64,000 nucleotides of DNA from positions 131,734 to 195,733 of the forward strand of contig CAYRUS010000002.1 of NCBI GenBank assembly GCA_964427735.1. The letters run 5' to 3'. This DNA is from an uncultured Gammaproteobacteria bacterium. Lineage in GTDB: Bacteria > Patescibacteriota > Microgenomatia > UBA8517. Below are positions 875 through 58,400 of the stretch, in pieces (the first letter of the stretch is position 1; every line of letters begins with the position of its first letter). Under the pieces are notes generated by a model. It was not told the origin of the DNA and did not search any database. It worked only from the letters and a program-made list of their open reading frames with translations. The translations under genes were made by a program, and so were the position numbers.

Positions 875-1099
875 TTGTATTTTAAAGAAAAAACTTTAAA
901 GGATTTATCTTGCTCAAACAATATCAAACGTTAACAAGGTATGTCAAGAGGATGTTAATAATTGGTTGTTGGGTTATAGATATTAGAAGATTGAAGTTAG
1001 AAGCTGGAAGTAAGACTTTAGACACTGGCCATTAGTTTTAGGATTCAGGACTTTGAGTACTCGATAAATTTTATTGTAAGTAAATTAGCTAAACTTAAC

Positions 1100-42559: not shown

Positions 42560-43498
42560 AAGTAAATGTCTAAATTATTGTAGCATGTTGCCAAGATTGT
42601 TACTTGTATTTTTGTACCTTTTAATAAATCGCCGTGCAACAATGTCCTAGAGTCATTGTTTTCAACTAATTAATATTAGTCTAAATTGGACATACCGACC
42701 TCCTCCAGTATTAATTGTCCAACTTTTACAATAATTATCAAATAGATATAGTAATCATATTTCCTTCTAAATATTGATTTATAGGTTGTACTTTGAGTAT
42801 AACTAAGCACCAAATCTAATAAAATTTCTTAAATTTCTTCGAAATATTAGCTATGTAAAGCTTTTATATCCTAAATAATATTCTAATTCTCAAATTGGAG
42901 AGAAATATAAGTGGATATGTTTTTTCTGCAAGTAATGCGTTATTTTACGAGCCTTATTTGTCCGTAATTTGTAAATAGATATAATTTCTGCATTCTATTT
43001 ATGGAAAATAATAGATATTTGTATTGATTTTGTTGCGGTTTAATATGCGTATATTTTATTTCCGCACGGTATTTGTTCGTTTATCATGCCTATTTTTAGT
43101 AAATTGATGTCGCTAATGCTTATGTGACAATTGTATGATTAAATTTCTCACTTATTTCTGCAAATATGGCAAATTGCGGAAATATACCTTCGCTTATCAT
43201 CTTATGGCATTGAACACGGATGCCAATAATTTGACTGATATATACCGCATGACGTGCGTTTATTATGCCTAAATTTCATTTTTACCTTTAGTTGCAAGAT
43301 TAAAACTTATTTAGCAAGAAGTCTTCAAGTATTTACCTAACTAAAATTTCAACCTAGCCTGATTAAGGTTTTAAGTAGAAGCATCTTCCAACGTATTAAT
43401 CTAAAAATTACCACAATAATGCCCCATAAATAAATATAAAACGATATTGACAACAACAGCCAAAACTGTATTAATGATATTGGACATTACAAACTTAA

Positions 43499-46400
43499 AT
43501 GTCCATTTTTAATACCTGTCCAATGCCCAACAGTACAAAAGTCTATCTATCAATACACGAAGCTGCTGATTACTTGAATGTATCACGCAAAACATTAAGG
43601 CGATGGGAAAAGACTAAAGTGTTAATTCCCTTGCGCACTTCAGGTGGCCATAGAAGATATACAAAAGACCAGCTAGATAAGTTTAAAAAGATTAAAGGTA
43701 GAAAAAGAATAACAAGCAAAGTAAAGACTAAAGTATTCGAAAACAAGACTAGCCAAGCGGTACAGTTACCTACTTTGAGTAATACTAACAAAACTCAAGA
43801 AAGAACGTCAGAAGATAGTAATATTAATCTTCTTGACACAAATATAAATAATAGCCCAAAAGACGAATATATAGATTACAATGACAACCATGAACACACT
43901 ATCAAATATCATAAGGATCACATTCCTATAATCGAAACAGAAACACCATCTCAAATCACCACCGAAAATCTAATTTTGCCTCAGAATAATATCCAGACTA
44001 ATTCCAAACCTAAAAATAACGCAAGTAAATTGAGATCTGTTTCCTACTTCTTTGTGTTTCTACTCTTGTTTGGTGGATTTGTATACTCTGTAAAAGCACT
44101 CCCTGGAGTGGATCTAAATATATCAAAAGGTATCAAGTCTAGTATGGCAGGCTCATCAAACAGTGGGAATATCCAATCAGCCTTTGAAAGGGTCCTTGCT
44201 GCAACCTCTTTTAATCTTTCCTTATTACGCGTAAATGTAAACTCAATTTTCGAAGAAGACATTGCAATTAATGGTGAGAATATAACTACATCATCAGATA
44301 CAATCAATTTATTCAATGAGAACGCTACAACAATTTCCTTTGGAGGCGAAGCTGAAGCAATAAACATAGGAGCTCCCACAGGAACTACAGTTATTAATAA
44401 TGCATTAAATGTAGGATTAGATTTAGCTGTTAATGGTAATTTGTCTGTAGTAGGTATTGCTACTCTAAACACGCTTACTTTAGGAGCAGACACTATTACA
44501 GATATTACTGGAGATGGATTAATTGTGGTTGATGGTGCTCTTACTTCTACATTTGGATCGTCAATAGATTCTACTGATATAACAGATGGAACTATCTCTT
44601 CAGTAGATCTTAATATATCAAACTCTCCCTCTGATGGATTAATCCTAGCCTATGATGAATCCACCGGAGGTTTTACCTGGGTAGTAGACCAAACCGGGGC
44701 TGGAGGAAGCTTGTTCACAGACGCTGGCACAGTAACATATTTAACCGATACTACTGATGACTTGGTTATCGGCGGGACAGTTGCACTCTCCTCCAGTAAA
44801 GTATCAATAGATGGAGATAGTGACCAAATACAATTCTTAGTTCAAGGAAATTCAACCCAAACTACAAACCTTGCAGTTTTCGAACAATCAGATGGAACAG
44901 ACGTATTAACAATTGACAACTCAGGAAACTTAATAACCGCAGGAAGCATTTCAGCGGCCACCAATGAAACTATTAACGGAATTGATATTAGTGCTGGTAC
45001 TATTTCTGATGTTGTTAATTTACTCATTAATGCTGGCGGGGATTTATCAATTGGAGGAATTGGTTTAAGTGATACTGGAGCTAATAATCTAACATCAGGT
45101 GCAAGCCTAATTGGTGTTTTTGACGAATTCACAAATTCTAACTCCACTACACTCCAAGCTGTATTAAATGACCTTGATGCGGCAATAGGATCTGGTTCAT
45201 CCAAGTGGACACAAGATGTTGGATTTATTTATCTCACTAACTCGACAGACTCTATTACAATTGGAGGAAACACAGAGCTTGGAAAACTTGCTATAGCAGG
45301 TGATGCTGACGAATTGCAGTTTGTTGTTAGAGGAAATGCAACCCAAACAGCAAACCTAGCTACCTTTGAAAACTCCTCAGGGGATGATCTTTTGGCAGTT
45401 ACAAGTATGGGAGATCTTCTATCGGGATTTACACAGTTAGATGGAAGTTCAACTGCAAACGGTGCAGGTGCAGCCTCAAAAACTTTGGTCTTACAAGCAG
45501 GTGGTGGCGCCAATTTTGATATTGGAAACTATGTAAGAATTGATAGTACAAACTGCGACGGTGCCGCTGACACTTGTTATTCAAAAATTAGAGGTAAATC
45601 TGGCGACACACTTACACTAAGCAATTCCCTAACCTGGGCAAATGGTAGTGTTGTTTTAGAATATCATATACCCGAAGTCGGAGGAACTAACCTAGCTGAT
45701 ACTCTTGATAATAGATATGGTCTAGGTTATTTCATCAGCGGTGTAACCACAGGAAATGCCTCAACTTTCTATGGGGATGGCGAAATAACAACCTCAAGTG
45801 TTACTAATTTGAATTCTAAAAGCTTATCCATTCGTACAGGAAACTCAGTTGTTTCAGGAAACTCCGGAGATATAATAATTGATACTGGATCTGCAGAAGG
45901 TACAGCAGGTACAATTTCTATTGGAGAAAATAACACAAGCGGTATCACAATAGGTCATAGTGGTATAAATACTACCATATCAGGAAATCTTATTTTCAAC
46001 AGCCAAACAATTAATAACTTTACCGGCAATGGTCTAACAACATCCTCAGATGCTCTAACGATTCAACTAACAAATGCAGCAGACGAACTATCTTCTACAA
46101 CAAGCTCAGGGTCTGGTTTGGAAGTATTATCATCTGGTTTGACCCTTCTCCAAGGATGCGATAACGGTCAAGTTCTAAAGTGGAATGAATCAAATAATTC
46201 ATGGGAATGTGCAAATGACACAGGAGCCTCAAGTGCTGTAATAAATGTAGAAAACAATGATGTAGAAGTTGGTACAGACGTAGACACATTGGACTTTAGC
46301 ACAGATTTTATTCTTACAGCTTCTCCTTCTAACGAGGTCAACATATCCATAGCGGATGATGTTATAAACTTTACGGAAATTAGTGATTCGTTAACACTAG

Positions 46401-49400
46401 ACGCAAATACAAATGTAGCGCTAGGAGCTTTAACTTTTTCCACTTCAGGCACAGGATCTTTAGATTTTAATTCAACTGGTCAAGTATCCTTTGCGGGAAA
46501 TGTTGATGCGGAAAATGGACTTGACGTTACTGGATCATCATTAACTGTAGGTGGCACGGCATTTGTAGTTGGTACAGACGGAACGATTAGCGCAGGAACC
46601 TGGAGTGGAACTGCAATTGCTGCTCAGTACGGTGGAACAGGTATCGACACATCAGGAGCTACAGGTGTTCCTTATGTTTCTTCAGGTATTTGGAATACTG
46701 AATCCACTTTATCTCTTTCTCGCGGAGGTACAGGAGCATCACTTACTGATCCTAACGCTGATAGAATCCTCTTCTGGGATGACTCCGCAAACTCCACTGC
46801 CTTCCTTACTGTAGGATCTGGTCTTTCTCTCTCTGATACCACTCTCTCTGCTGTTGATACTTCTGCTACTAATGAATTGCAAAACCTCTTCTCTACTATC
46901 TCTGTCTCTGGACAAAGTAATGTAGTCGCTGATTCAATCACTGATACTCTTACTCTTGCAGCCGGATCTAATATCTCCATCACTACTGATGCATCTAATG
47001 ACATTATTACTATCGCTGCCTCTGACTCTGATACTAACAACTTCACTACAAGCATCGCTTTTACCGGTACCTCTACAAAAACTTTAACTCTAACTAGAAA
47101 TGGTCTAGCTGATCTAACTGCAAACTTTACTGATATTGGCTTTGATAACCCTATGACTACTGCAGGAGATATTATTTATGGCGGTGTTAGTGGAACAGCA
47201 ACCAGACTAGCAGGTTCTGCTAATGATGGTTACGTACTAAAATTTGATGCTAATACCAATGCTCCATTTTGGGCAGAACTCATAGATAATGATACAAACT
47301 ATTGGGAATTAAGTGAAGGCATTCTCTCTCCAGATACATCTCAAAACGCAGAAGGTATCGCAGCAACATCTTCTGCGACAACAGTTGCTACATTCACAAG
47401 CACTGGTTCAAATGATTCTTTTTGGGCAGGATCCGTAGGTAATTATTTGACAATTTCCTCTACCGGAGGTCTTACTGTCCCGGGAGCAACAAATCTTAAC
47501 GGTTCCTTTAGTTTAGGAGATGGTGGCGACACAGGATCAATTAATACATCGACATGGGACATTTCATCCACAGGAGCAATTACTGGTGCTACTTATGAAG
47601 GATTAACTATCACTACAACTACCGGTACTCTTACTATCGCATCTGGAAAGACATTAACCGCAAATAACTCCCTTACCCTTGTAGGTAATGATTCTGATAC
47701 TTGGACTTTCCCCTCTGCTTCTGGAGCGTCAGGGACAGTAGTTGGCACTGATGAATCTCAAACCTTAACAAACAAAACACTCACAAGTCCTAGAATCGGT
47801 ACCTCTATTCTTGATACTAACGAAAATCCTCTTTTTTCTCTCTCTGCAACCGGTTCAGCTGTCAATTACCTAACTTATGCTAATGCAGCTACAGGAAACA
47901 ATCCCACCTGGACTGCTACTGGGTCTGATACGAATATTTCCCTCACTACGTTGCTTAAAGGCACTGGAGCTGTTCTGTTTGGCTCAACTATTGCGAATTC
48001 TGATACAATCAGTATCAAACCACAAACTTCTACTACAACTAACCCTTTTTCTGGAACTATTACCTCTGAAGATTTAACTGCTGATAGGACCTGGACTTTC
48101 CAAGATGCAGACGGCACCCTGGCTTTCTTATCTGATATTCCTACTTCTGATAACTACCAATACTGGACATTATCTGATGGTTCTAATACAGCTCAAATCA
48201 ATAGCACTGAAACTTTTCAAATAAATACAGGTACAGGAATTACTGCTCTTGTAGCAGAAGGATCGCCAAATACATTGACGCTTTCTGTAACGGATGATTC
48301 TGATACTAATGAATTGCAAAATCTCTTCTCAACTATCGCCGTTTCCGGGCAAAATAATGTCGTCGCAGATTCAATTACTGATACTCTTACCCTTGCAGCC
48401 GGATCTAATATCTCTATAACAACAGATGATACTAATGACATTATTACCATAGCAGCCACAGATACAAATACTACCTACTCCGCAGGGAATGATCTAGATT
48501 TATCGGGTACTCAATTTAATATCGAATCTGAGCTTAATTTTGTAACCAGTATAAACCCAACAAATTCTGCACTTTCTTTAGCATCAAATGGATCTGGTAA
48601 TGATATAAATTTAACATCAGCAAACGCCATTGCCTTTGATGATGCCACATTAACTACAGCGATTACACTCACAGATACAGACACTGCTTTTGATTCTGGT
48701 CATACAGCCATAGTAGATGCTATAAATGCAGCTTATAATGCAGCAACGGGTGGAGGTGCAGGACTTTGGGAGGTAAATTCTGGTGTGTTAAATCCTTCAA
48801 GTTTAACTCAAGATCTAGCCATTGGAGGTACTGATAACACTGCAGCGCTTTTCTTTGATACAAGTACCTCTGCTTTAACATTAAATCCTTTTGGTACATC
48901 AACAGGCAATACGGGAGAGTTAAGACTTACAGAACTTGCTGCAGAAGGTACTAATTATACCGGATTTAAATCTCCTGACTCTTTAGATGCAAACTTGATG
49001 TATACACTTCCTTCCTCAGCAGGATCTAATAATTATGTACTTACAACAGATGGTTCTGGAGGTCTATCCTGGCAAGCTGTAGGAGATGTTGGCGCTGGTT
49101 CTGGAGACGTAACTGCTGTCGGTGATTGTTCTGGAAATGATTGCTTTACTCAATCAGGAACAGGAAATACTCTCTATTTTGAAGGAGCTACGGCAAATGA
49201 CTTTGAAATTGCTCTGACAACCACAGGAGACCCAGATCAAGACTACACAATCACATTGCCAAATGCTTCTGGTGAAATTACAGTATTAGGCCAAAGTATT
49301 GATTTGACAAGCGAAGTTACAGGTGTACTTCCTTTGGCTAGCGGAGGTACAGGAGCATCACTTACTGATCCTAACGCTGATGGAATCCTCTTCTGGGATG

Positions 49401-52400
49401 ACTCCGCAAACTCCACTGCCTTCCTTACTGTAGGATCTGGTCTTTCTCTCTCTGATACCACTCTCTCTGCTGTTGATACTTCTGCTACTAATGAATTGCA
49501 AAACCTCTTCTCTACTATCTCTGTCTCTGGACAAAGTAATGTAGTCGCTGATTCAATCACTGATACTCTTACTCTTGCAGCCGGATCTAATATCTCCATC
49601 ACTACTGATGCATCTAATGACATTATTACTATCGCTGCCTCTGACTCTGATACAACCTATACATTTACTAATGGTTTAACTGAATCTGGTGGCACTGCTA
49701 AACTAGGTGGAACTTTAACCGAAAATACAACTCTTACTACTGACACTTTTGCATTTATAGTTGATTCTCTTAACTTTGATGGCACTACAATTGGCTTAAC
49801 ATCAGATACTGACCTGCTCTCTTTATCTTCTGGAGCTCTAACTGTTAACGGAACTGGTACCTTTACAGGAGATCTGACTGCTAGTGCAGACTTGATTGTT
49901 AGCGGAAGAGGAAGTTTCTCCCATGGCAATAACCAAGGTCTTAATATACCAACTGTAGCAGGTACACCGTCTGCTGTTACAGGTACATCAGAAGGAGATA
50001 TTGTTTATGACTCTACTGGAGATGCTCTTTATATCTATGATGGTAGCCAATTCTCCCAAATTGGTGGTGGTGGCTACAGTGGTTGGACGTTAACCGGTGA
50101 TACGGGTTCGCAGGTTATTAGCTCCGGAGATACAGTATCTGTCATAGGCGGAACTAATTTAACTTCAGTGGTTACTGCTACTGATACTCTTACTCTCAAC
50201 CTCGATGATAATATTACCTTGGCTGGTACCACTGGTATTACACTAACGGGAACTGGCTCTGGAATAACTTTTGAAAATTCAAGCATCATTACCAATCCAT
50301 CGGCTTCGGTGTTTGCCTTTGGTGATAGTACTAACACTCTTTCACTGAACCTGGCAGCAGAATCTGCTGGGAGCATAGATTTCACCACCAACGACACCGT
50401 AAACCTCACCCTCAACCCGGGAGGAAACGTCGGGATTGGGACGACTGATCCATCAGAGATGCTACATGTGGCAGGAGATGTACTCTTTGAGCAAAATCTC
50501 GCAATCAACGATGCCTCTATACATGATAATTATGTCATCAACATGAAAGTCGGCAACACTACAAGCGGAAGTGGTCACAGAGGCATTAATATGTCAGGTG
50601 AAAATATTAGCAAAAACGTTACTGGATTGTTTTTGAGCGTAAACAACACAAGCGCAAATACCACTGGAGTAAATACCTTTGTGATTGGAACTGATGCAGC
50701 TTCTCTCTACGGGGCTTCGAATATTTTGATTACAAATTATGCAGCTTATGGAGTCAATAACTCTATTACTGCTAAAGATGACGCCACTCAACAAAGACTA
50801 TATGGAACCCGCACTGAATTGACAACCTACACCAATGATGTTGGGTACGGACTTTTTGTCAAGCCTTCCATTTTTGCCACCGGAGGTACTCAATACGGCG
50901 CCTATTTTGATTTTACAAGCTCCAACACAACTAACTATGGTGTCTACCAAACTGGTGAAGCCACCAACTATTTCGCAGGTACGGTGGGGATTGGTGATGA
51001 TGCTCCGGATTTTGCGCTGCAGATTGGCGAGGTGGCAGCGGGAGTGGATACGGCTAATGGAGTCGGGATTGCCGGGGACTTACAGGTGGATGACTTTGCC
51101 CTCATAAATGCACTTAGAGTAGGATCAACTGCTACGGATCCAGGAGATGGAAATGCATACATTGAGGGGAATTTGACAGTGAACGGTCGAGGAATCTTTA
51201 CTCATGGCAATAACCAAGGTCTTAATATACCAACTGTAGCAGGTACACCGTCTGCTGTTACAGGTACATCAGAAGGAGATATTGTTTATGACTCTACTGG
51301 AGATGCTCTTTATATCTATGATGGTAGCCAATTCTCCCAAATTGGTGGTGGTGGCTACAGTGGTTGGACGTTAGATGGTGATACAGGAACTCCTGAAAGT
51401 ATAAATTCATCAGACACAGTAACTTTTGCAGGAGGGAATGGTTTAGCATCTGTGGTGTCCTCTACTGACACACTTACCTTTAACTTAGCAGCCCTTACAT
51501 CTGACTGGGATCAAACAGGCGCAAACGACATCATACTAAATCATGCTGACTCAGAACTTAAGATTTTAGAGAGTACAGGAGGAACATATTATGCCACTAT
51601 TGACGCTGGAGATTTAGACCAAGATGCAACTTTGAGAATAGATTCAGGAATTAACCTTGATGGAAATGGCAATACCCTCACCTTATCAGGAAATCTAAAT
51701 GTTGAAAGCATTTCAGCCATTAACCAAGATCTAACCACTGATGCAACAGGTGTGGCATTTGGAGATTTAACCTTAGCAGGTTCAGCTGAAGGTACAGATG
51801 CATTGACCATCACCGCAGGTGACCTCACTCTGGAAGATGGCGATCTAGTACTATCCTCTGGACAATTTACTCTAAATTCTGATGATACTGATGTTACCAC
51901 CGATGAACTTAAGGCATTTAACTTAACTTCCTCTGTCACATTTGATACAACATCAGCAAGCCTTATAAATTATGGTGCTTATATCAGTAACACGAGCAGT
52001 ATCAGCAGTGGTGCAAACACTCTTACTAATATTGGTCTTTATGCAACTGCATCTGGTGCAGACAATAATTATGCAGCGATATTTGAAAATGGAAATGTAG
52101 GAATTGGAACTACATCTCCTACAGAAAAACTACACGTATCTGGTGATGCCTTGCTAAGTGGGCAACTTGCCCTTCATGGAGCTAGTGTAAATGACGACTA
52201 CGCAATTAATATTGGAAATCTCTCAACGAACCAACGAGGTATTAACATCTCTGCAGGAAGCCCAACTAGTCCAGTGTATGGAGTGTACTTTGACATTAGC
52301 AACCCCGGTAGCACTGGTGCAAGTTATGCGTACTATGCCAATGCAACTAATCCCGGCGATTTTGCTGGTTTGATGACAAACGTAACGGGCGGCCGATCAC

Positions 52401-55400
52401 ACGGAGTGGTTAACAACCTCACTGTGACTAGTGATTATGGATATGGTGTAAGAAACACCATCACCTCAAGCAGTACTGGATTTAACTCAATTTATGGCGT
52501 CAGGTCAGACTTAACCTCAGCTGGTACTGACTCTCTAGGAATCAACAACGCTTATGGAAATTTTAATATTATCAAGGGAACCAATGACGAATTTGCGCAA
52601 AAGCTGTTCGGATCGTACACAGAATTAACTACCCACGCAAATGATCTAGGATACGGCATGATGGTAACCAACGCAGCAGCCTCAACTGGAGGTACTACCT
52701 ATGGAGTTTATCTTAATCTTACCGACACGGATGTGACTCGCTACGGTATTTATGAAGCCGGAGGCGCTACAAACTACTTCGAAGGTAGTATTGGAGTTGG
52801 AACCAACAATCCAGGTGCAAAACTGGATGTTCAAGGAGGGCTAAGATTAGGAGCTGATACAGGTGCAAATAACATCTTAAATACAACTGCAGCAGCAGGA
52901 GCAGCGAGCGGAGATCTTTACTGGGGAGACAAACTTCTTTGTGATTCAAGCGAGTCAAACTGTGGTTGGACTACTAGTTCAAGTGGATCAAATTACTGGA
53001 CTGCAGATTCAGGTGTACTCTCTCCAAACGGTACTGACGGAGAAGTTATTGCTGCAACATCCTCAGCTACGACAGTTGCTACATTTACCTCAGAAGGGTC
53101 AAATGATGCTCTAAAAGCCGGCTCTACTGATAACTACTTTACAGTTGGAAATGGTGGACACGCTAGACTGGTTGATGGCTCTGTCTCAACTCCTGGACTT
53201 GGATTTGTTAACGATCCTGATACTGGAATTTATAGATCTGCTTCTGACACACTTGATTTTACTGCAGGTGGAGTTAGAGGTCTTTCTATCAATACAATCG
53301 CAAGCGGTGTGAACTACTTGTCTCTTACCCCTTCAGCAACCGGTAATTCAGTTGACCTAGGAGTGGCAGGAAGTGATGCTAATATTGGACTAGATATTGC
53401 AAGCAAAGGTACAGGTTCAATTTCATTTACATCTGGAAATATAACTGGAACTGGATCATCAAGTTCGTTTGTATTTAATGCAAATGCCTTAACCTCCGGT
53501 TATGGAATAGATTTGACATCAACCTCTACAGGACTTACTACAGGAAGACTGCTTAATCTCTCATGGGAACCAGGCTCTGCAACTACAGCTACAGGTGATC
53601 TATTCCGATTAAACATTGGGGCAAATGGAAATATAGGCAATCTGTTCCATATCACAGACAATGGCTCTACCCTCTTTAGAGTAAGCGAAAGCCAAATAGA
53701 ATCAGCACTTCCTCACGCATTTACAGCTACAGGAGATGTCTCTGTTGCTTATGACCTTGTCTTTACAAACCAATCATCAGGTGAAATTCAATCTTATGGA
53801 CCATTGACTATAGCTTCTGGAGAAAGATTTGAAAACAATAACTTAACTCTTAGAACCTACGGGACAGGAGATTTGGTAGCAGACTTAGGAGCATCTGGAG
53901 AATTTATCCCGGGAACAGATGATGCACACAATTTAGGAAACAGCACCAATAGATGGAAAGAGGTATTCTCTGCTCTTGGAACAATTAACACATCTGATGC
54001 AAGGCTCAAAACTGATGTAGTCGAAATGGATTATGGACTAGAGACACTTATGCAACTTAGACCAGTTAGTTACACACTCAAAGGAAACGAAGAAAGTGGA
54101 ACTCAATTAGGATTAATCGCACAAGAAGTTTTAGGAATTATTCCAGAAGTTGTGAGAGTTCCAGAAGACATTAATAATGGCTATTATGGAATTCGATACT
54201 CCAGCTTAATACCAGTATTAATAAATTCAATTCAAGAACAACAAGAAATTATAACTAATCAAAAAAGTCAGCTTACCACTCTACAATCAGACTTAGCATC
54301 CATCAGCACTAAAGTTGGTAATATTGAGTTAAACTCTACAGGAGAAATTGCAAGTATAGCAGCTGACTTAATTGCAACAAATGAAATTAAAGCTAGAAAT
54401 GGAAATCTTGAAATTGATCTTGCTGAAAGCAACGCAGAAGGTAAATTAGTGATAACAGGACAAAATGAAAAAACTGTAGCAGAAATAGATAGCGAAGGAA
54501 ATGCCAGATTTGATGGAAAAATTAAAGCAGAAGAAATCAATACTCAAAACCTAGAAACTGAAAATGCTACAGTTTCTGGCGAGCTAAGAGCAAAGAAAAT
54601 AATAGCTGATGAAATAATTGGATTTGAATCAAACTCTATAACCAGATCAGAAATCGAAGCAATGCTTGCAGAGTACGAACAAGATCAATCTTTACTTAAT
54701 GAAGCTTCAGAATGGGAATTAGGAACTACTGAAGGAGTTGCATCCCTAACTGAACTGATGACAGAAAATCTCTATGTTACTCAAACAGCAGCATTGGATT
54801 CATTATCTGTTTCAAACTCTGCAGTAATTGGTGGAGATATTATAATTTCACCTTCAAATATTGAAGCAGGTCTTGGAAATAGCATTAATACATTGACTTC
54901 TCCTCTCGAACTTCAATCTGCTGCATCTCAACCATTGAAGATCATGGCTGGTTTAGTAACTATTGATACAAATGGTAATGTAACTATCTCAGGAGATTTG
55001 GCTGTTGCTGGAAAAGTAACAACATCCGGAATAAACTTGGTACAAGATGATACACAAGAGGCTACTGAAAGCGCAACTGTACTTTCTGTTACCGATAAAG
55101 AAGGCTCAGAAGTAGCAACTGTAACAGCAACAGGTTCGGCTACATTTAAAGAATTGTCTGCAGATCGATTTGCAGTAAAACAGGACGAAGAAGCAACCTC
55201 GACTGAAAACTCTGCCGGTACAACATTTACAAACAATGCATCAGCTGGATCTGCAATAATTCCTGCTGGATCAAAACAAGTAATAATCAAAAATAATATA
55301 GTAAAAGAAAATTCGCTGATTTTTGTTACACCAACATCACCAACACCTAATACTATATATATAAAGGATCAAGTAGAGGGTGCATTTATGGTTGGATTTG

Positions 55401-55456
55401 ATACTGGAACTCAAGACGAGGTTAAATTTAACTGGTGGGTGGTTGATGTCCAATAA
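43499..55456 (+). CDS. giant (3985 aa) membrane-anchored fibre-like surface protein: N-terminal HTH_17-like domain, single TM, ~3,200-aa Ser/Thr/Gly/Asn-rich repeat ectodomain, then a phage tail-spike-type intramolecular chaperone auto-processing (peptidase S74-like) domain and a C-terminal coiled-coil
   Basis: One uninterrupted ORF. aa ~15-65 'LSIHEAADYLNVSRKTLRRWEKTKVLIPLRTSGGHRRYTKDQLDKF' is an HTH. TM 'VSYFFVFLLLFGGFVYSV' at nt ~44039-44092. Recurring 'xGNVGIGTTxPxxxLHVxGD' tail-fibre-like modules. nt ~53918-54270 'SDARLKTDVVEMDYGLETLMQLRPVSYTLKGNEESGTQLGLIAQEVLGIIPEVVRV...YSSLIPVLINSIQEQQ' matches the conserved S74/CIMCD signature. Near-identical internal DNA repeats are listed separately. 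Confidence 0.8.
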   Translation: MSIFNTCPMPNSTKVYLSIHEAADYLNVSRKTLRRWEKTKVLIPLRTSGGHRRYTKDQLDKFKKIKGRKRITSKVKTKVFENKTSQAVQLPTLSNTNKTQERTSEDSNINLLDTNINNSPKDEYIDYNDNHEHTIKYHKDHIPIIETETPSQITTENLILPQNNIQTNSKPKNNASKLRSVSYFFVFLLLFGGFVYSVKALPGVDLNISKGIKSSMAGSSNSGNIQSAFERVLAATSFNLSLLRVNVNSIFEEDIAINGENITTSSDTINLFNENATTISFGGEAEAINIGAPTGTTVINNALNVGLDLAVNGNLSVVGIATLNTLTLGADTITDITGDGLIVVDGALTSTFGSSIDSTDITDGTISSVDLNISNSPSDGLILAYDESTGGFTWVVDQTGAGGSLFTDAGTVTYLTDTTDDLVIGGTVALSSSKVSIDGDSDQIQFLVQGNSTQTTNLAVFEQSDGTDVLTIDNSGNLITAGSISAATNETINGIDISAGTISDVVNLLINAGGDLSIGGIGLSDTGANNLTSGASLIGVFDEFTNSNSTTLQAVLNDLDAAIGSGSSKWTQDVGFIYLTNSTDSITIGGNTELGKLAIAGDADELQFVVRGNATQTANLATFENSSGDDLLAVTSMGDLLSGFTQLDGSSTANGAGAASKTLVLQAGGGANFDIGNYVRIDSTNCDGAADTCYSKIRGKSGDTLTLSNSLTWANGSVVLEYHIPEVGGTNLADTLDNRYGLGYFISGVTTGNASTFYGDGEITTSSVTNLNSKSLSIRTGNSVVSGNSGDIIIDTGSAEGTAGTISIGENNTSGITIGHSGINTTISGNLIFNSQTINNFTGNGLTTSSDALTIQLTNAADELSSTTSSGSGLEVLSSGLTLLQGCDNGQVLKWNESNNSWECANDTGASSAVINVENNDVEVGTDVDTLDFSTDFILTASPSNEVNISIADDVINFTEISDSLTLDANTNVALGALTFSTSGTGSLDFNSTGQVSFAGNVDAENGLDVTGSSLTVGGTAFVVGTDGTISAGTWSGTAIAAQYGGTGIDTSGATGVPYVSSGIWNTESTLSLSRGGTGASLTDPNADRILFWDDSANSTAFLTVGSGLSLSDTTLSAVDTSATNELQNLFSTISVSGQSNVVADSITDTLTLAAGSNISITTDASNDIITIAASDSDTNNFTTSIAFTGTSTKTLTLTRNGLADLTANFTDIGFDNPMTTAGDIIYGGVSGTATRLAGSANDGYVLKFDANTNAPFWAELIDNDTNYWELSEGILSPDTSQNAEGIAATSSATTVATFTSTGSNDSFWAGSVGNYLTISSTGGLTVPGATNLNGSFSLGDGGDTGSINTSTWDISSTGAITGATYEGLTITTTTGTLTIASGKTLTANNSLTLVGNDSDTWTFPSASGASGTVVGTDESQTLTNKTLTSPRIGTSILDTNENPLFSLSATGSAVNYLTYANAATGNNPTWTATGSDTNISLTTLLKGTGAVLFGSTIANSDTISIKPQTSTTTNPFSGTITSEDLTADRTWTFQDADGTLAFLSDIPTSDNYQYWTLSDGSNTAQINSTETFQINTGTGITALVAEGSPNTLTLSVTDDSDTNELQNLFSTIAVSGQNNVVADSITDTLTLAAGSNISITTDDTNDIITIAATDTNTTYSAGNDLDLSGTQFNIESELNFVTSINPTNSALSLASNGSGNDINLTSANAIAFDDATLTTAITLTDTDTAFDSGHTAIVDAINAAYNAATGGGAGLWEVNSGVLNPSSLTQDLAIGGTDNTAALFFDTSTSALTLNPFGTSTGNTGELRLTELAAEGTNYTGFKSPDSLDANLMYTLPSSAGSNNYVLTTDGSGGLSWQAVGDVGAGSGDVTAVGDCSGNDCFTQSGTGNTLYFEGATANDFEIALTTTGDPDQDYTITLPNASGEITVLGQSIDLTSEVTGVLPLASGGTGASLTDPNADGILFWDDSANSTAFLTVGSGLSLSDTTLSAVDTSATNELQNLFSTISVSGQSNVVADSITDTLTLAAGSNISITTDASNDIITIAASDSDTTYTFTNGLTESGGTAKLGGTLTENTTLTTDTFAFIVDSLNFDGTTIGLTSDTDLLSLSSGALTVNGTGTFTGDLTASADLIVSGRGSFSHGNNQGLNIPTVAGTPSAVTGTSEGDIVYDSTGDALYIYDGSQFSQIGGGGYSGWTLTGDTGSQVISSGDTVSVIGGTNLTSVVTATDTLTLNLDDNITLAGTTGITLTGTGSGITFENSSIITNPSASVFAFGDSTNTLSLNLAAESAGSIDFTTNDTVNLTLNPGGNVGIGTTDPSEMLHVAGDVLFEQNLAINDASIHDNYVINMKVGNTTSGSGHRGINMSGENISKNVTGLFLSVNNTSANTTGVNTFVIGTDAASLYGASNILITNYAAYGVNNSITAKDDATQQRLYGTRTELTTYTNDVGYGLFVKPSIFATGGTQYGAYFDFTSSNTTNYGVYQTGEATNYFAGTVGIGDDAPDFALQIGEVAAGVDTANGVGIAGDLQVDDFALINALRVGSTATDPGDGNAYIEGNLTVNGRGIFTHGNNQGLNIPTVAGTPSAVTGTSEGDIVYDSTGDALYIYDGSQFSQIGGGGYSGWTLDGDTGTPESINSSDTVTFAGGNGLASVVSSTDTLTFNLAALTSDWDQTGANDIILNHADSELKILESTGGTYYATIDAGDLDQDATLRIDSGINLDGNGNTLTLSGNLNVESISAINQDLTTDATGVAFGDLTLAGSAEGTDALTITAGDLTLEDGDLVLSSGQFTLNSDDTDVTTDELKAFNLTSSVTFDTTSASLINYGAYISNTSSISSGANTLTNIGLYATASGADNNYAAIFENGNVGIGTTSPTEKLHVSGDALLSGQLALHGASVNDDYAINIGNLSTNQRGINISAGSPTSPVYGVYFDISNPGSTGASYAYYANATNPGDFAGLMTNVTGGRSHGVVNNLTVTSDYGYGVRNTITSSSTGFNSIYGVRSDLTSAGTDSLGINNAYGNFNIIKGTNDEFAQKLFGSYTELTTHANDLGYGMMVTNAAASTGGTTYGVYLNLTDTDVTRYGIYEAGGATNYFEGSIGVGTNNPGAKLDVQGGLRLGADTGANNILNTTAAAGAASGDLYWGDKLLCDSSESNCGWTTSSSGSNYWTADSGVLSPNGTDGEVIAATSSATTVATFTSEGSNDALKAGSTDNYFTVGNGGHARLVDGSVSTPGLGFVNDPDTGIYRSASDTLDFTAGGVRGLSINTIASGVNYLSLTPSATGNSVDLGVAGSDANIGLDIASKGTGSISFTSGNITGTGSSSSFVFNANALTSGYGIDLTSTSTGLTTGRLLNLSWEPGSATTATGDLFRLNIGANGNIGNLFHITDNGSTLFRVSESQIESALPHAFTATGDVSVAYDLVFTNQSSGEIQSYGPLTIASGERFENNNLTLRTYGTGDLVADLGASGEFIPGTDDAHNLGNSTNRWKEVFSALGTINTSDARLKTDVVEMDYGLETLMQLRPVSYTLKGNEESGTQLGLIAQEVLGIIPEVVRVPEDINNGYYGIRYSSLIPVLINSIQEQQEIITNQKSQLTTLQSDLASISTKVGNIELNSTGEIASIAADLIATNEIKARNGNLEIDLAESNAEGKLVITGQNEKTVAEIDSEGNARFDGKIKAEEINTQNLETENATVSGELRAKKIIADEIIGFESNSITRSEIEAMLAEYEQDQSLLNEASEWELGTTEGVASLTELMTENLYVTQTAALDSLSVSNSAVIGGDIIISPSNIEAGLGNSINTLTSPLELQSAASQPLKIMAGLVTIDTNGNVTISGDLAVAGKVTTSGINLVQDDTQEATESATVLSVTDKEGSEVATVTATGSATFKELSADRFAVKQDEEATSTENSAGTTFTNNASAGSAIIPAGSKQVIIKNNIVKENSLIFVTPTSPTPNTIYIKDQVEGAFMVGFDTGTQDEVKFNWWVVDVQ
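46722..47034 (+). repeat. 313-bp intragenic direct repeat, copy 1 (~99% identical to 49341-49653)
   Basis: Direct reading: identical except for a single visible substitution (gatagaatcc vs gatggaatcc). Encodes 'RGGTGASLTDPNAD(R/G)ILFWDDSANSTAFLTVGSGLSLSDTTLSAVDTSATNELQNLFSTISVSGQSNVVADSITDTLTLAAGSNISITTDASNDIITIAASDSDT'. Confidence 0.9.
48301..48465 (+). repeat. diverged (~85%) third copy of the 3' part of the 313-bp intragenic repeat
   Basis: '...TNELQNLFSTIAVSGQNNVVADSITDTLTLAAGSNISITTDDTNDIITIAATDT' at protein level; nucleotide similarity clear by eye. Confidence 0.7.
49341..49653 (+). repeat. 313-bp intragenic direct repeat, copy 2
   Basis: See copy 1; offset 2619 nt (a multiple of 3, so the frame is preserved). 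Confidence 0.9.
49922..50092 (+). repeat. 171-bp intragenic perfect direct repeat, copy 1 (identical to 51203-51373)
   Basis: Encodes 'HGNNQGLNIPTVAGTPSAVTGTSEGDIVYDSTGDALYIYDGSQFSQIGGGGYSGWTL' in both places; offset 1281 nt (in frame). Confidence 0.9.
51203..51373 (+). repeat. 171-bp intragenic perfect direct repeat, copy 2
   Basis: See copy 1. Confidence 0.9.
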
Positions 55457-58400
55457 AATGAAAAAACTAAAAAGACTAAAAATATTTAGAACAAAAAAAC
55501 AGAGATTATTAGCCTTATTTATGCTAGTGGTCTTTTTAGGATCTATCGTACTTTTTAATTTAATTTTTATTAAAGATGCAAGCGCTGCTTGGTGGGACGA
55601 CAACTGGGCTTACAGAGTAAGAGTACCTGTAACAAACAATACAACTACAGAGACAGACGTATACATTGTCTTTGATGGAGACACACTATTTATAGACACA
55701 TCTGATACAAATAAATTTCAGGCAGATTGTGGTGACTTAAGATTCCTAAAAGAAAACGGAGATCTTCTTCCCTATCGCGTAGTCTCTGGATGTGGTACTG
55801 CAAATACAGAAGTTCATGTCAATTTTGACAAGTTTCCTACGGGATCACAAAACATATACTATTATTATGGTAATCCCGATGCTCCAGATGGTTTTGTCAC
55901 CTCTTCTTTTTCTACAGAAGCATCTGATTACACAATTGGCACACCAGCCTCAGAAGAAAAAGGTCCGACACCTGCAATTTATTTAAAATTTGATGAAGGA
56001 TATGGAACAACTGCCTTTGATAGTTCCTCAAATGGTAATGATGGTTCAATCTCATCGGCAAGATGGAAAAACAAAGATTACTGCATTTATGGTAATTGTC
56101 TATTTTTTGACGGAATAGATGATGTAGTAACTGTAGCAAATGCCAATTCAATTGACTTTGATAGTGATTTGGCAGACGGGTTTACCATTGGTATGTGGGT
56201 TAGAGTTAATTCAGATGGTGAAAGTTCAACAGGAGAAATTCTAGATAAAGGAACTAACACTTATATTAAAGTTCATTCAGAAGATACTGACGGCAAAGCT
56301 GATTTAGAAGTCAAACTGGACCTAACAACAACGGACGCAAATTTAAATATTACCGATGGGATAACCATTGATAGATGGCATCACCTATCAGTGATATACG
56401 ACGGAAACAGTTCTATAACTGTATACATAGATGGAGAAAATTCGGGAAGCAATACTGGATCCGGAAGTCTGGAAACTGATACCAGTGATTTATTAATTGG
56501 TGGTGATTCAGCGAATAATTTCCACGGCTTTATTGACGAATTTAAAATATACAATTACATCCGTACCGCTAACCAAATACAATCAGACATTATAAATCTT
56601 GCTTCAGATAGAGGCAACAGTGCCACTTTTGGAACTAGTAATAAATTTTTATCAGATGGACTGATGGGATATTGGAACTTGGACGAAGAAAGCGGTAATG
56701 CAACTGATAATAGTGGGCATGGAGTTACTTTAACAAACAATAACACTACTACTTTAACTGGAGGTAAATACGGACATTCAGGTGATTTTGAGAGTTCCAA
56801 CTCTAATTTTTTTAATGCCATCCAGGGAAGTTCAAGCACTGTAAATACTGCCATAGTGAGACAAAATGCTCCAACCACATTTGGGACACAAGACTTTACA
56901 TCTACTGGGTTTGGTACACCAAAAGCAGCACTTTTTATTATGTCAGAAGCACCTTCTGAGGGATCAGTAACCGCAAATGCATCTCTTAGCATTGGTTTTA
57001 CAGATGGGGTTAGTCAATTTGTAAATGCTGTAAAAAGTGTGGATAACGTTTCTCCTGTTGATACATTTACGCAGTTAAGCAATGCTGCTGTCATTGAAGA
57101 AGGAACTACTTCCAGTTCACGAGCACGAGCATCATTTGATTCTTGGATTACAGATGGTGTACGAATCAATTGGGCGAGTAATAGTGGTGGAGGGAATCGA
57201 TTGGTTACTGTGATTTTGTTTGGTGGCGATGATCTTAATGCAAAAGTCACATCTTTTACCACAAATTCCACCAGTGGAAACTCTACAAATGTAGATTTGG
57301 GATTCGTACCAGACCTGGCATTTTTTATGACAGGATCTTCCGGAACATCAACGATCTCAAATGCATGGACGAGCTTTGGTTTTTCCAGTAACACAACTCC
57401 TATCGTGAATAGTTCTGTTAACATTTTCTCTGGCGACAACATATCGACTTCTGAAACATTCATGTTCGCACATACCAACAGAGCCTACTTGAGAATGAGA
57501 TCTAACGCAAGTACAGTTCAACATTCTGCTGAAGTCACGGGTTATATAAGCACACCTGTCCAGGGCATACAGGTTACAACCAGAGATGTAAACAGAAGTG
57601 CGGATATAGCAACATTAGCTTTTAAGTTTAATGATGGAGCAGAATTCTGGGCTGGTATGGTCGATTCTCCAACTACAACCGGTGATCATTCTGTTACCTC
57701 ACCTGGATTCGAACCTTCATTCGTTTGGCAGTTTATGTCAAATGTCACAGCTTTGAATACAAAAATCGACGGGGTCGCATTGGGTTCTTCAACCTTTAAT
57801 TCTACTACAAGTTACAGCAACAGTATGACAGATCAAGACAATGTGTCTACATCAGTTGCAAAATCTCTATCTGAATCAAAAGCAGTTAAACAAAATTTAC
57901 AAAATAACACGACCGGCTTTACAGGAACACTATCTTCTATGGATTCATCAGGTTGGACAATAAATTATACAGATACCCAATCTACTTCAGCTAAATGGCC
58001 TGCTATGGCGATTGGCGGTGGCAACGGTGGAAGTCAATCAGCAACTTCCCATGATCACCTAAATCCACCAGAAAGTCTAACAATTTCTACTTGGATTAAA
58101 CCAGAATCTGTTACTGCTGATACCCAATTTAATATTGTTGGTAAATGGGACAGTAGTGAAGAAGGATATTTGCTTGCTCAATATGGAGATGAAATAAGAA
58201 TGTATATAAATTCAAACTCAAACTATGTAACTACAAATTCTGCCAACCTTTCTACTGGAGTTTGGTACCACATAACAAGCATATATGACGCTCAAGAGCA
58301 AAAAGTAAAAATTTTTATTAATGGTAATGAATCTCCTGCCACAACAACCGGCACAATACCGTCTGCTATTACAAACACCGGAGGAGTTTTCCATATAGGT

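Follow-up and report, generated by a model that had tools for sequence, protein, structure and literature searches.

A giant surface-fibre gene of Microgenomates bacteria with a predicted membrane-tethered MerR/BldC-like DNA-binding domain and a conserved palindrome at its own promoter

The window, the whole 64,000-nucleotide stretch of DNA analysed here, contains a single uninterrupted ORF of 11,958 nt, as the earlier reading made from the sequence alone (the sequence-only reading) had it. Its 3985-residue product, identical to entry P0131 of a public protein library, is predicted to be a cell-surface fibre of roughly 3,980 residues from an ultra-small Patescibacteria/Microgenomates bacterium, with a DNA-binding domain at its cytoplasmic end. 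The 940 bp that precede the gene had been called non-coding, and no ORF of 60 or more residues was found there; an Rfam scan of the window returned two tRNAs only. The features of the locus are as follows.

41795-42559, minus strand: divergent partner gene for a 254-aa protein with a signal peptide, a conserved domain that is exported, and a hairpin resembling the F-ATPase c subunit
42686-42722, no strand: distal inverted repeat, half-sites spaced by 23 nt (TTGGACA-N23-TGTCCAA); the divergent gene 41795-42559 starts 127 bp away, with the repeat on its upstream side
43447-43475, plus strand: sigma-70-like promoter; -35 TTGACA (43447-43452), 17-nt spacer, -10-like ATTAAT (43470-43475)
43480-43506, no strand: putative operator, inverted repeat TTGGACA-N13-TGTCCAT, from cross-locus conservation
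43499-55456, plus strand: giant gene, 3985 aa as called, probably 3977 aa from ATG 43523
43517-43530, no strand: third half-site TGTCCAA (43517-43523), then TGCCCAA (43524-43530), flanking the probable start ATG 43523 (Met9)
43544-43696, plus strand: cytoplasmic MerR/BldC-like winged helix-turn-helix (HTH), aa 16-66, from Pfam, NCBIfam, AlphaFold and Foldseek
43697-44020, plus strand: disordered, low-complexity cytoplasmic linker, aa 67-174
44021-44098, plus strand: single transmembrane (TM) helix (signal anchor), aa 175-200, from hydropathy and AlphaFold
44099-53992, plus strand: ectodomain, aa 201-3498; mosaic rich in T, G, S and N, containing internal duplications and four modules of the GNVGIGTT type
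44189-44260, plus strand: conserved juxtamembrane motif RVLAATSF..(L)RVNVNSIFEED, aa 231-254, from alignment A1
53972-54343, plus strand: Peptidase_S74 intramolecular chaperone domain, aa 3492-3615, from Pfam, alignment and AlphaFold
54344-55222, plus strand: post-S74 tail, aa 3616-3908; rich in strands, a single helix of 22 aa, low to medium model confidence
55223-55453, plus strand: family-wide C-terminal beta-sandwich, aa 3909-3985, motif '...SLIFVTPTS...F(N/D)WW(I/V)VD'
55458-61295, plus strand: gene for a DUF2341 protein with six Laminin_G_3 domains and a TM/signal anchor at the N terminus; its ATG follows 1 nt past the giant-gene stop
61434-63503, plus strand: membrane protein of the Wzy_C (O-antigen ligase-like) type, with TPR repeats at its C terminus; homologues occur at related loci

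The translation start of the ORF call needed correction. ATG 43499 falls inside the conserved operator palindrome, and the start homologous to that of the relatives is Met9 (ATG 43523), which is probably the true start of the gene.

The N-terminal domain was matched by three Pfam families at residues 16 to 66, all above their gathering scores: MerR_1 (E 5e-10), HTH_17 (E 3e-9), the family that had been expected there, and MerR (E 2e-8). The NCBIfam model 'excise' also matched (E 1.8e-8). An AlphaFold model of the N-terminal region, as proposed earlier, gave the HTH with a pLDDT of about 90 together with the TM helix at 175-200. Foldseek matches to the HTH were all of the MerR-type fold (BldC, RacA, CarH, BmrR, SoxR and Xis), the best being the BldC-DNA complexes 6ama and 6amk and the RacA-DNA complex 5i44; BldC was also matched by phmmer. 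The domain thus shows both features that define the MerR superfamily, a Pfam hit that clears the gathering score as well as the beta-alpha-alpha-hairpin-alpha fold. The classical MerR layout is absent: the helix at 56-66 is followed by disordered linker, with no coiled-coil dimerisation helix and no effector-binding domain, and the MerR_1 match is incomplete (positions 2-50 of the 69 in the profile). A role as a classical MerR sensor of metals or drugs was considered and rejected. Against the NCBIfam BldC model (NF033787) the HTH scores 31.6 bits, below the cut-off of 77. The BldC residues that contact DNA (K26, T27, R30, W31, K33, G44, H46, R47 and R48; PMC5859096) have equivalents in K31, T32, R35, W36, K38, G49, H51, R52 and R53, and these are conserved family-wide, most of them invariant (alignment A1). 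The nearest structural matches and the conserved contact residues support a domain competent to bind DNA. No Trans_reg_C (OmpR/PhoB-type) match was found in the giant protein with Pfam, so that the likeness to ToxR and CadC drawn earlier holds for the topology and fails for the type of HTH, which is MerR/BldC-like. Two further proteins with the same type of HTH, noticed before, are encoded in the window at 650-895 and 5701-7059, both on the minus strand; the former is an 81-aa soluble BldC-like protein.

The linker between the HTH and the membrane is modelled with a pLDDT below 50; across the family it measures 37 to 155 residues from HTH end to TM helix. The one hydrophobic helix of the sequence-only reading was recovered as a Kyte-Doolittle peak at residues 178-196, within the AlphaFold helix, and Kyte-Doolittle analysis of the rest of the giant protein gave no further hydrophobic helix downstream of residue ~198. 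An excess of Lys and Arg lies on the N-terminal flank of the TM helix in 30 of 46 family members and on the C-terminal flank in 7.

Beyond the membrane lie some 3,300 residues rich in Thr (14.7%), Gly (12.4%), Ser (11.7%) and Asn (8.4%), in agreement with the long, tail-fibre-like ectodomain described before. The tail-fibre-like modules, of the form 'G.[VI]G[IV]G..P...L.[VI]', number four and begin at residues 2309, 2494, 2865 and 3096 (nt 50423, 50978, 52091 and 52784). Tandem Repeats Finder reported no tandem arrays in the giant gene; its internal repeats are dispersed duplications, as a chunked self-comparison revealed, including 46719-47018 against 49338-49637 (99% match) and 49892-50106 against 51173-51387 (93% match). 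Copies of the first repeat module (about positions 205-270 of the profile) were found 10 to 28 times in other proteins.

A phage-type chaperone domain had been expected at residues 3480-3590. Pfam places Peptidase_S74 (PF13884) at residues 3499-3553 (nt 53993-54157), with an E value of 5.7e-14 and 52.6 bits against a cut-off of 22. The Ser-Lys dyad is intact in S3499-D-A-R-L-K3504 (Ser3499 at nt 53993-53995, Lys3504 at nt 54008-54010); in an alignment with T5 pb1 (4uw8), Ser3499 falls at the cleavage-site position, and the S, D, R and K of the motif are at least 90% conserved among 30 homologues (alignment A2). The AlphaFold monomer model of this region has a pLDDT of 86-92. What follows the domain had been described as a 390-aa coiled-coil tail, a description that did not survive modelling: AlphaFold gives two helices only (3567-3607 and 3716-3737), and the remainder is strand-rich. 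S74 is accordingly not at the extreme C terminus, and the ~370 residues that follow it here, as they do in P0007 and P0008, are atypical for an S74 domain. The post-S74 tail is common to P0007, P0008 and other matches, and it is also found in L081 (E 5e-85). The final beta-sandwich (pLDDT about 92) was found in every complete relative but L045; Foldseek matched the C-terminal model to phage tailspike and pyocin fibre C-terminal domains with E values no better than 2e-3, matches weak enough to be used as a hint only.

The S74 domain is confined to a sub-branch of the family and does not define the architecture. It is missing from six complete relatives, so that a chaperone step does not apply family-wide, and phmmer with the S74 region of the window found no S74 among the locus-derived relatives. 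A locally built S74 HMM, which scores the giant protein at E 5e-50, was needed to detect the S74-bearing members in the protein library; with it, HTH and S74 were also found combined in P0230, P0221, P0166, P0258 and P0269.

Searches with tblastn confirmed 315 relatives, from which 80 loci were kept. At least 76 of the 80, mostly Microgenomates, combine the HTH, exactly one TM helix (within residues 80-220) and a very long ORF, and the N-in, single-pass topology with a huge ectodomain proposed for the window protein is conserved in these 76 loci. Far from being unique, the giant protein is a member of a large family conserved in Microgenomates, and the longest member in the library has 7,954 residues. 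The divergent partner gene heads the iPGM/F-ATPase gene string and occupies the c-subunit slot of that operon; in the PDB its profile matched c subunits only, and a homologue adjoins the HTH gene, in divergent orientation, in ~70 of the 80 loci. The DUF2341/LamG gene comes next after the giant gene in L060, L015, L012, L081, L011, L082, L083/84 and L075; homologues of the Wzy_C/TPR protein occupy the matching position in L083/L084, and one is also found in L020. The chromosomal location claimed earlier is borne out by the neighbours, the F-ATPase operon, iPGM and LeuRS, an arrangement that recurs in ~65 related genomes. A literature search found no account of this giant HTH-fibre family, in keeping with the earlier remark that the architecture seemed undescribed; a preprint on giant genes (10.1101/2023.11.21.568195) was set aside as a description of the same family, since it deals with proteins of Omnitrophota that carry SecA-like domains and many TM helices.

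This conservation bears on whether the ORF joins a small regulator to a fibre gene through an assembly or annotation error, or is the tail-fibre gene of a prophage. The near-identical internal repeats (99% over 300 nt) are able to mislead assemblers, an in-frame TGA splits the frame in the relative L082, and S74 and tail-fibre-like modules are typical of phages. Against this, a single frame runs through HTH, linker and TM helix in 76 independent loci and is not interrupted by a stop codon in any of them; this excludes the frameshift or fusion near 43.7 kb that had been named as a possible flaw. The housekeeping neighbours are kept in ~65 genomes, phage genes are absent nearby, and a TM anchor with a cytoplasmic HTH is foreign to virion fibres. 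A PHROGs search with the giant protein gave no tail-fibre family, only excisionase and DNA-binding families at the HTH. Both explanations are extremely improbable and, given the family-wide conservation, effectively refuted.

The promoter/palindrome block is the sole non-coding stretch that aligns at the DNA level with related loci, and the palindrome at the gene's own promoter is newly found here. The putative operator begins 4 nt past the -10 box and so covers the transcription start, predicted to lie near 43482; ATG 43499 is part of the operator's right arm. With at most one mismatch, TTGGACA-N10-18-TGTCCAA occurs 47 times in 1.2 Mb (window plus loci), against 1.5 expected as the mean over locally shuffled sequence. 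All 47 copies lie upstream of an HTH gene, the majority directly after a TTGACA/-10 promoter. TTGACA is found 27-58 nt upstream of the palindrome at 36 of 42 sites in related loci, 15 of which, the window included, have a gap of 27-28 nt. The heptamer TTGGACA lies in the upstream region of 40 of the 42 loci, where 4.8 were expected (P about 1e-35). Across the whole window neither this heptamer nor the octamer TTGGACAT is over-represented; the signal is visible only through cross-locus comparison. Distal copies of the palindrome, 350-800 bp upstream, are also present in L008, L045, L056, L063, L069 and L075; in 16 of the 80 loci the palindrome is absent within three mismatches. A further element, CTGCCCA/TGCCCAA, precedes the KTLRRWE codons by 60-66 nt in at least 20 loci, in differing reading frames, which points to conservation at the nucleotide level.

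An alternative is that the HTH does not bind DNA and instead docks or anchors proteins, much like the cytoplasmic HTH of RodZ, which binds MreB. The palindrome would then serve another regulator or form a stabilising 5' stem-loop on the 12-kb mRNA. The RodZ precedent speaks for such an arrangement, as does the start of the palindrome at about the predicted transcription start, which would make it the 5' end of the mRNA and could make it an RNA hairpin. The window also encodes the soluble BldC-like protein at 650-895, a candidate alternative reader, and symmetric changes that preserve pairing, such as TTAGACA/TGTCTAA and TTGTACA/TGTACAA, were seen in four loci. A covariation test on the base pairs of the palindrome does not discriminate between a symmetric operator and a hairpin in RNA. 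Counting against the docking explanation, 59 one-sided changes break the pairing, compared with 5 compensated changes and 8 that give G-U. The sequence of the stem, beyond its pairing, is kept between genomes whose HTH-region proteins are only ~30-35% identical, and a base-reading Arg and a minor-groove His/Arg/Arg wing are among the family-conserved BldC DNA-contact residues. In addition, HTHs with a 'GNQRRY' wing tend to be accompanied by tandem direct repeats with a period of 10-12 bp (12 of 28 loci, against 3 of 52 for the others; P 1e-4). This is a BldC-style arrangement that is unable to form an RNA hairpin, and the correlation with wing type is confounded by phylogeny. On balance, we regard the docking explanation as distinctly improbable.

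The reading that we prefer, and consider reasonably probable, is that the giant protein is a transmembrane transcription regulator with a tail-fibre-like filament as its ectodomain, autoregulating at its own operator. The gene product would be a core envelope protein of the Microgenomates (Woesebacteria-like, judging by the best-matching loci) Patescibacteria cell and a type-II single-pass membrane protein, with its N terminus in the cytoplasm and its C terminus outside. The ~3,780 exported residues would form a long filament resembling a phage tail fibre, probably glycosylated, perhaps in connection with the Wzy_C/TPR gene, and, by analogy with S74-bearing phage fibres, probably a trimer; scaled roughly from phage tail fibres, its length would be of the order of 100-200 nm. 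It may serve in attachment to a host or surface. In the lineage of the window, the S74 chaperone would aid folding and trimerisation, and its self-cleavage at Ser3499 would free the last 487 residues. We infer from the sequence comparisons that the minimal HTH, on its flexible linker of ~110 residues, binds TTGGACA-N13-TGTCCA(A/T) at its own gene, and it possibly also binds the distal palindrome that faces the divergent F-ATPase operon. An operator at the gene's own promoter suggests autoregulation first, and since it lies just past a normally spaced -35/-10 pair, repression is the most likely effect; negative feedback would then cap the amount of a very costly fibre protein, read out at the membrane. 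Several points count against this reading. The link between palindrome and HTH protein is a correlation, and as all loci were chosen for having the HTH, another soluble regulator could recognise the palindrome; and a trimeric fibre has no obvious fit with a two-fold symmetric operator. The 16 loci without the palindrome, the possible RNA hairpin, the HTH score below the BldC cut-off, the residues past S74 and the lack of a PHROGs tail-fibre match weigh on the same side.

A variant of the autoregulatory reading, which we hold to be rather unlikely, has the HTH act in cis and co-translationally. The HTH is made within seconds of the start of transcription of the 12-kb gene and so could bind the operator of the same gene copy, blocking re-initiation until the nascent chain reaches the membrane and the fibre is exported. 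If so, it would be a 'one molecule at a time' gate that couples synthesis of the giant fibre to its export, tied through the shared intergenic region to the divergent, unusual F-ATPase operon.

In line with the sensor role suggested earlier, the giant fibre could instead be the contact or tension input domain of a ToxR-like one-component system that switches a wider set of genes, which we think unlikely, though not negligibly so. Engagement of a host or surface would shift the oligomeric state or position of the HTH, or proteolysis would free it; this we consider unlikely to the same degree. The topology matches that of transmembrane transcription regulators (PMC10269533), the paired operator copies point towards the giant gene on one side and the divergent F-ATPase operon on the other, and a long flexible linker would allow the HTH access to DNA. 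However, across the 64-kb window and 1.2 Mb of flanking DNA the palindrome is limited to one intergenic region, domain searches turned up nothing recognisable as a ligand-binding or signalling domain, and no protease gene is conserved at the locus. Sensing and autoregulation are compatible and not mutually exclusive. By analogy with Notch, fibre tension or host contact might conceivably be relayed to the HTHs, in which case the family would be a mechanosensory transcription factor in minimal-genome bacteria.

Patescibacteria are generally regarded as living in attachment to other cells; to our knowledge, very little has been established about what their surfaces contain and how their few regulators work. 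The family described here is conserved, syntenic and very large, and unites a DNA-binding domain, a membrane anchor and a phage-like fibre of several thousand residues in one polypeptide. Its candidate operator is defined precisely enough to be tested with a 60-residue peptide and a 90-bp DNA, without culturing. Should the HTH bind its own promoter, membrane-bound transcription factors would extend to MerR/BldC-type domains and to an ectodomain more than 10 times larger than any described for such factors, and there would be a first handle on how a ~12-kb gene is budgeted in a genome of ~0.9 Mb (complete relatives). The many database entries named 'MerR family regulator, partial' that are cut off by the end of a contig also become recognisable to annotators as the heads of giant surface genes.

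Transmembrane transcription regulators are a recognised class that includes ToxR, TcpP, CadC and VtrA (PMC10269533). Its members presumably work on DNA while in the membrane. The giant protein shares their cytoplasmic N-terminal DNA-binding domain, single TM helix and extracytoplasmic C-terminal part, and the defining combination of a DNA-binding domain and a TM region in one protein is present in 76 of the 80 loci. It differs in its MerR/BldC-type domain, where those four have an OmpR-type winged helix; in its ~3,780-residue filament, where their outer domains, small sensors, do not exceed a few hundred residues; and in its self-cleaving chaperone, predicted for the window lineage, and its inferred target, its own promoter. 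The HTH itself most resembles BldC of Streptomyces (6ama, 6amk; PMC5859096), a minimal MerR-like HTH that likewise has neither coiled-coil dimerisation nor an effector domain (34-38% identity, TM-score about 0.7 over the domain). BldC sites are direct repeats, as are those of one family subclass (tandem, period ~10-11 bp), whereas the family operators are mostly inverted repeats; and BldC is a free, 68-residue cytoplasmic developmental regulator, whereas this HTH is membrane-tethered. RacA of Bacillus subtilis (5i44), the second-best structural match, has the same MerR-like HTH fold and links DNA to the membrane and pole. Unlike the giant protein, it is soluble, with neither TM helix nor extracellular part; it reaches the membrane via DivIVA and binds many GC-rich chromosomal sites.

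At the other end, the giant protein resembles endosialidase K1F (3gw6) and the T5 L-shaped tail fibre pb1 (4uw8) in its Peptidase_S74 match with the SD.RLK motif, in the position of S74 after a long fibre-like region, and in a helix past the domain core. Unlike these phage fibres, it is encoded at a cellular core-genome locus, has an N-terminal TM anchor, and carries ~370 residues with a beta-sandwich beyond S74; cleavage and trimerisation are here predicted only. With PHROGs hits confined to the HTH and housekeeping neighbours, it falls outside the phage tail-fibre families. Closer in setting are the cellular 'tail fiber domain-containing proteins' of Bacteroidota, Acidobacteriota and others, which are non-phage fibre genes ending in S74; a C-terminal query gave 490 matches. 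These have 350-1,000 residues and no N-terminal HTH in their listed Pfam content, and the post-S74 tail is common only to the Patescibacteria matches (P0007, P0008, P0010-12 and P0014).

The giant gene is a single uninterrupted ORF of 11,958 nt, with a TAA directly 5' of its first ATG; it encodes 3,985 residues, numbered here from ATG 43499, and the product is identical to P0131 in the public protein library. The main features are as follows.

41795-42559, minus strand: divergent partner gene; signal peptide, ~150-aa exported domain, TM hairpin
43447-43452: -35 box, TTGACA
43470-43475: ATTAAT, after a 17-nt spacer
43480-43506: palindrome, TTGGACA-N13-TGTCCAT
43499-55456, plus strand: giant gene
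46719-47018 and 49338-49637: dispersed DNA repeat pair, 99% over 300 nt
49892-50106 and 51173-51387: dispersed DNA repeat pair, 93% over 215 nt
aa 16-66: HTH; Pfam MerR_1 (E 5e-10), HTH_17 (E 3e-9), MerR (E 2e-8)
aa 178-196: TM helix, the only TM-like segment of the protein in a hydropathy scan
Ectodomain: T 14.7%, G 12.4%, S 11.7%, N 8.4%; four GNVGIGTT-type modules

All of the domains described in the sequence-only reading (an N-terminal HTH, one hydrophobic helix, an S/T/G/N-rich ectodomain with tail-fibre-like modules, and an S74 domain) were found, so its description is accurate except for the start codon and the tail; its interpretation is partly supported. The start homologous to that of the relatives is ATG 43523 ('MPNSTKVYLSIHEAA' in the window, 'MPENLLSIQEAA' in the related locus L025), and the protein is therefore probably 3,977 aa long; the right arm of the palindrome includes ATG 43499. 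The HTH also matches the NCBIfam 'excisionase family' (E 1.8e-8), and AlphaFold places the TM helix at aa 175-200, preceded by disorder at aa 70-172. The dispersed repeats in the gene, including the 300-nt pair at 99% identity, arose by recent duplication within the gene or by gene conversion; near-identical repeats such as these could collapse in short-read assembly. HTHs of the same type occur in two more proteins of the window, as had been claimed. One (5701-7059, minus strand) is a 452-aa protein with an N-terminal excisionase/MerR-type HTH (family HTH profile, E 3e-4) and a body that by eye resembles an M20/ArgE-type peptidase, a second unusual HTH fusion in this genome; the other (650-895, minus strand) is a free-standing 81-aa BldC-like HTH protein, which falls short of the NCBIfam HTH_BldC cut-off (E 6.6e-12).

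A query with the first 300 aa matched only six proteins, every one truncated at a contig end. All six share the HTH, linker, TM helix, and a 'VLAATSF..VNV.S.F' motif, and in one, from a Patescibacteria genome, the gene neighbourhood matches that in the window. With each species represented by a single genome, scanning confirmed 315 relatives, and the best 80 loci, which were kept, are nearly all from Microgenomates (Woesebacteria, Levybacteria, Amesbacteria, Chisholmbacteria); several relatives' records carry the label 'uncultured Gammaproteobacteria', which looks like mislabelling. The HTH, exactly one TM helix (aa 80-220), and a very long frame occur together in 76 of the 80. Most of these frames exceed 3,300 aa and then leave the locus sequence; complete members span 1,083 to 3,420 aa, and an exhaustive profile search (121 cluster representatives at E <=1e-30) found members of up to 7,954 aa. 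The distance from the end of the HTH to the TM helix varies from 37 to 155 aa, with never a stop codon in the linker, which rules out a sequencing fusion or frameshift artefact. Of 46 members, 30 have more K and R on the N-terminal side of the helix and 7 have more on the other side, a distribution that fits an N-in orientation. The first ectodomain module (profile positions ~205-270, '..NGGDITTSS...NLFNE....INIGG.A..I.IG...GTT.I.N') is a widespread unnamed repeat, present 10 to 28 times in other library proteins of 1,200 to 2,800 aa (P0127-P0130, P0132, P0134, and others); these were matched by the module, not the HTH head, their best stretch lying at profile positions ~200-270. All complete members but one share a C-terminal module, '...SLIFVTP...F(N/D)WW(I/V)VD', which in the window protein (aa 3909-3985) gives a confident beta-sandwich model (pLDDT about 92) with a weak likeness (E 2e-3 to 1e-2) to C-terminal domains from phage tailspikes and pyocin fibres.

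The S74 domain is bona fide, in an atypical, non-terminal position. Pfam Peptidase_S74 matches aa 3499-3553 (E 5.7e-14; 52.6 bits versus a cut-off of 22), the S3499-DARL-K3504 motif lines up with the position at which the L-shaped tail fibre of phage T5 is cleaved (4uw8), its Ser, Asp, Arg, and Lys are near-invariant across 30 homologues, and the core gives a confident structure model. Self-cleavage by S74 domains is established for endosialidase and T5 pb1. By analogy, the giant protein may trimerise and be cleaved here; if S74 cleaves as in phages, the last 487 residues, including the conserved end domain of the family, would be released. The 390-aa coiled-coil tail proposed earlier is contradicted by the model, in which, of the ~370 residues past S74, only aa 3567-3607 (the usual helix of the S74 chaperone domain) and aa 3716-3737 are helical. 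S74 is not family-wide: Pfam S74 was absent from six complete relatives, one of which shows no more than a chaperone-like Peptidase_G2 match under the threshold. A local S74 HMM identified the domain together with the HTH head in five other library members (P0230, P0221, P0166, P0258, P0269), and the nearest homologues at the C-terminal end, P0007 (42% identity) and P0008, have S74 and the entire tail in common with the window protein. In one related locus a lone in-frame TGA (L082:7373-7375) breaks a giant frame (>=3,404 aa), which resumes in the same frame into P0007; sequencing error, pseudogene formation, and recoding of the stop are all possible explanations. P0008 (L083:2413-5391, L084:546-3524) has at its start the C-terminal splicing block of an intein, '...EVEGTHNFVGNGILAHNT' (Pfam Intein_splicing), and is preceded by ORFs of 131, 430, and 237 aa, with downstream genes as in the window; an intein seems to lie within the giant gene of these two loci or to divide it.

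The next gene starts with an ATG 1 nt past the giant-gene stop and encodes 1,945 aa with DUF2341, six Laminin_G_3 domains, and its own signal anchor; a gene for a Wzy_C (O-antigen-ligase-like)/TPR membrane protein comes after it. At least nine other loci also have the former 3' of their giant gene; the latter is downstream again in L083 and L084. The DUF2341/Laminin_G_3 protein (55458-61295, plus strand) matches NCBIfam 'TafC family fimbrial protein' in five stretches (E 1.3e-44), a strong but sub-threshold match (153 bits versus a cut-off of 410); this match hints that it may also be a surface-filament component. Wzy_C-type enzymes include protein O-glycosylation enzymes, so glycosylation of the Ser/Thr-rich fibre would be a reasonable possibility. 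On the other side, the divergent gene (254 aa) adjoins the HTH gene in ~70 of 80 loci and heads an iPGM/F-ATPase b-delta-alpha-gamma-beta string. The locus is housekeeping, core-genome DNA, and because its neighbours are of this kind a prophage origin was rejected. The divergent partner has an invariant hairpin loop, '...YFGR....G(V/I)EA(I/V)GRNP(L/M)A' (partner alignment A3, loci L001-L081), the sole PDB matches to its profile were F-ATPase c subunits (E 6.5e-4 to 0.1), and its helix 2 has hydrophobic residues in place of the ion-binding carboxylate. In three loci (L018, L024, L028) it occupies the c-subunit slot, immediately 5' of b-delta-alpha-gamma-beta; no a-subunit gene was found at the locus. 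In Microgenomates it seems to be a highly unusual c subunit, or a protein derived from one.

The 940 bp 5' of the giant gene contain no ORF of at least 60 aa, as expected of the non-coding region described earlier, and the sole non-coding part conserved with other loci is a promoter-palindrome block. TTGGACA/TGTCCAA pairs were seen in this AT-rich region. The heptamer TTGGACA is not over-represented when counted within the window alone; at -600 to +60 of the gene start it occurs in 40 of 42 loci versus 4.8 expected (binomial P about 1e-35), with a density of 2.85 per kb versus 0.18 per kb elsewhere. The palindrome TTGGACA-N10-18-TGTCCAA, with at most one mismatch, has 47 copies in the 1.2 Mb of window and loci (locally shuffled mean, 1.5), all upstream of the HTH gene, most at -20 to -90, with a few second copies at -350 to -800. 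The palindrome keeps a fixed spacing downstream of a TTGACA box, the gap being 27 to 28 nt in 15 cases and 35 to 42 nt in 17. Given the layout of -35 box, ATTAAT, and palindrome in the window, the palindrome overlaps the predicted transcription start, the usual place of repressor operators. This conserved candidate operator at the promoter of the giant gene is new here. A second nucleotide motif, CTGCCCA(A)/TGCCCAA, lies at 43517-43530 and in the same place in at least 20 loci, 60 to 66 nt 5' of the KTLRRWE codons, and is like an operator half-site with a T-to-C change. It encodes 'LPN' in some loci and is out of frame just 5' of the ATG in L025, L031, L054, L063, L067, L070, and L074, and is therefore conserved at the DNA or RNA level.

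We infer that the HTH of the giant protein reads the palindrome. Among solved structures, BldC-DNA complexes (6ama/6amk; 34 to 38% identity, TM-score about 0.7) are nearest to it in both sequence and fold, with RacA-DNA second. BldC contacts DNA through K26, T27, T29, R30, W31, and K33 of the recognition helix and H46, R47, and R48 of the wing, with G44 at the interface (PMC5859096); these correspond to K31, T32, R34, R35, W36, and K38, to H51, R52, and R53, and to G49 in the window protein, and the equivalents of the contact residues are nearly all invariant in the family alignment. Tandem direct heptamer repeats with a 10- to 12-bp period, not inverted, occur in 12 of 28 loci with a 'GNQRRY' wing versus 3 of 52 others (Fisher P 1e-4), a correlation with the wing (the other form reads 'G.HRRY') that is confounded by shared ancestry, the groups probably being clades; direct repeats match the head-to-tail binding arrangement of BldC. 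In 'GNQRRY' loci (L024, L034, L040, L042, L050, L059, L061, L066, and others) three to five co-oriented TTGGACA-like heptamers lie 80 to 200 nt 5' of the HTH codons. Every locus was selected for carrying the HTH, however, and a different regulator may recognise the palindrome; the soluble 81-aa protein might compete or cooperate with the giant protein at the same operator, and no palindrome was found 5' of its own gene. The palindrome may instead be an RNA hairpin, as symmetric changes of both arms in four loci would allow, but a two-fold operator would give these too, 59 one-sided changes disrupt pairing, and direct repeats of the heptamer are unable to fold into a hairpin.

With moderate confidence, we favour a giant surface fibre, anchored in the membrane, with a cytoplasmic HTH that would bind the palindrome at the fibre's own promoter and thereby repress the giant gene. 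Membrane-anchored transcription factors are a common, recognised class, numbering 50,302 in 9,673 genomes, 56% of them single-pass (PMC10269533), so the HTH-TM-ectodomain topology is not by itself new; that survey leaves Patescibacteria unmentioned and gave no relevant match to 'MerR'. Our literature searches found no account of this family, nor of a giant fibre joined to an HTH of the MerR/BldC type, and the giant genes of Omnitrophota encode proteins of another kind, rich in TM helices and bearing SecA-like domains (preprint, 10.1101/2023.11.21.568195). The likeness to ToxR and CadC suggested previously stands as to topology but not as to family, the HTH type being wrong. The giant protein also lacks the coiled coil and effector domain of classical MerR regulators, and its HTH falls under the NCBIfam BldC cut-off. 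We classify it as a putative transmembrane transcription regulator that is unusual in three respects: a BldC-like head, an ectodomain in the form of a tail-fibre-like filament of thousands of residues, and a candidate operator at its own promoter.
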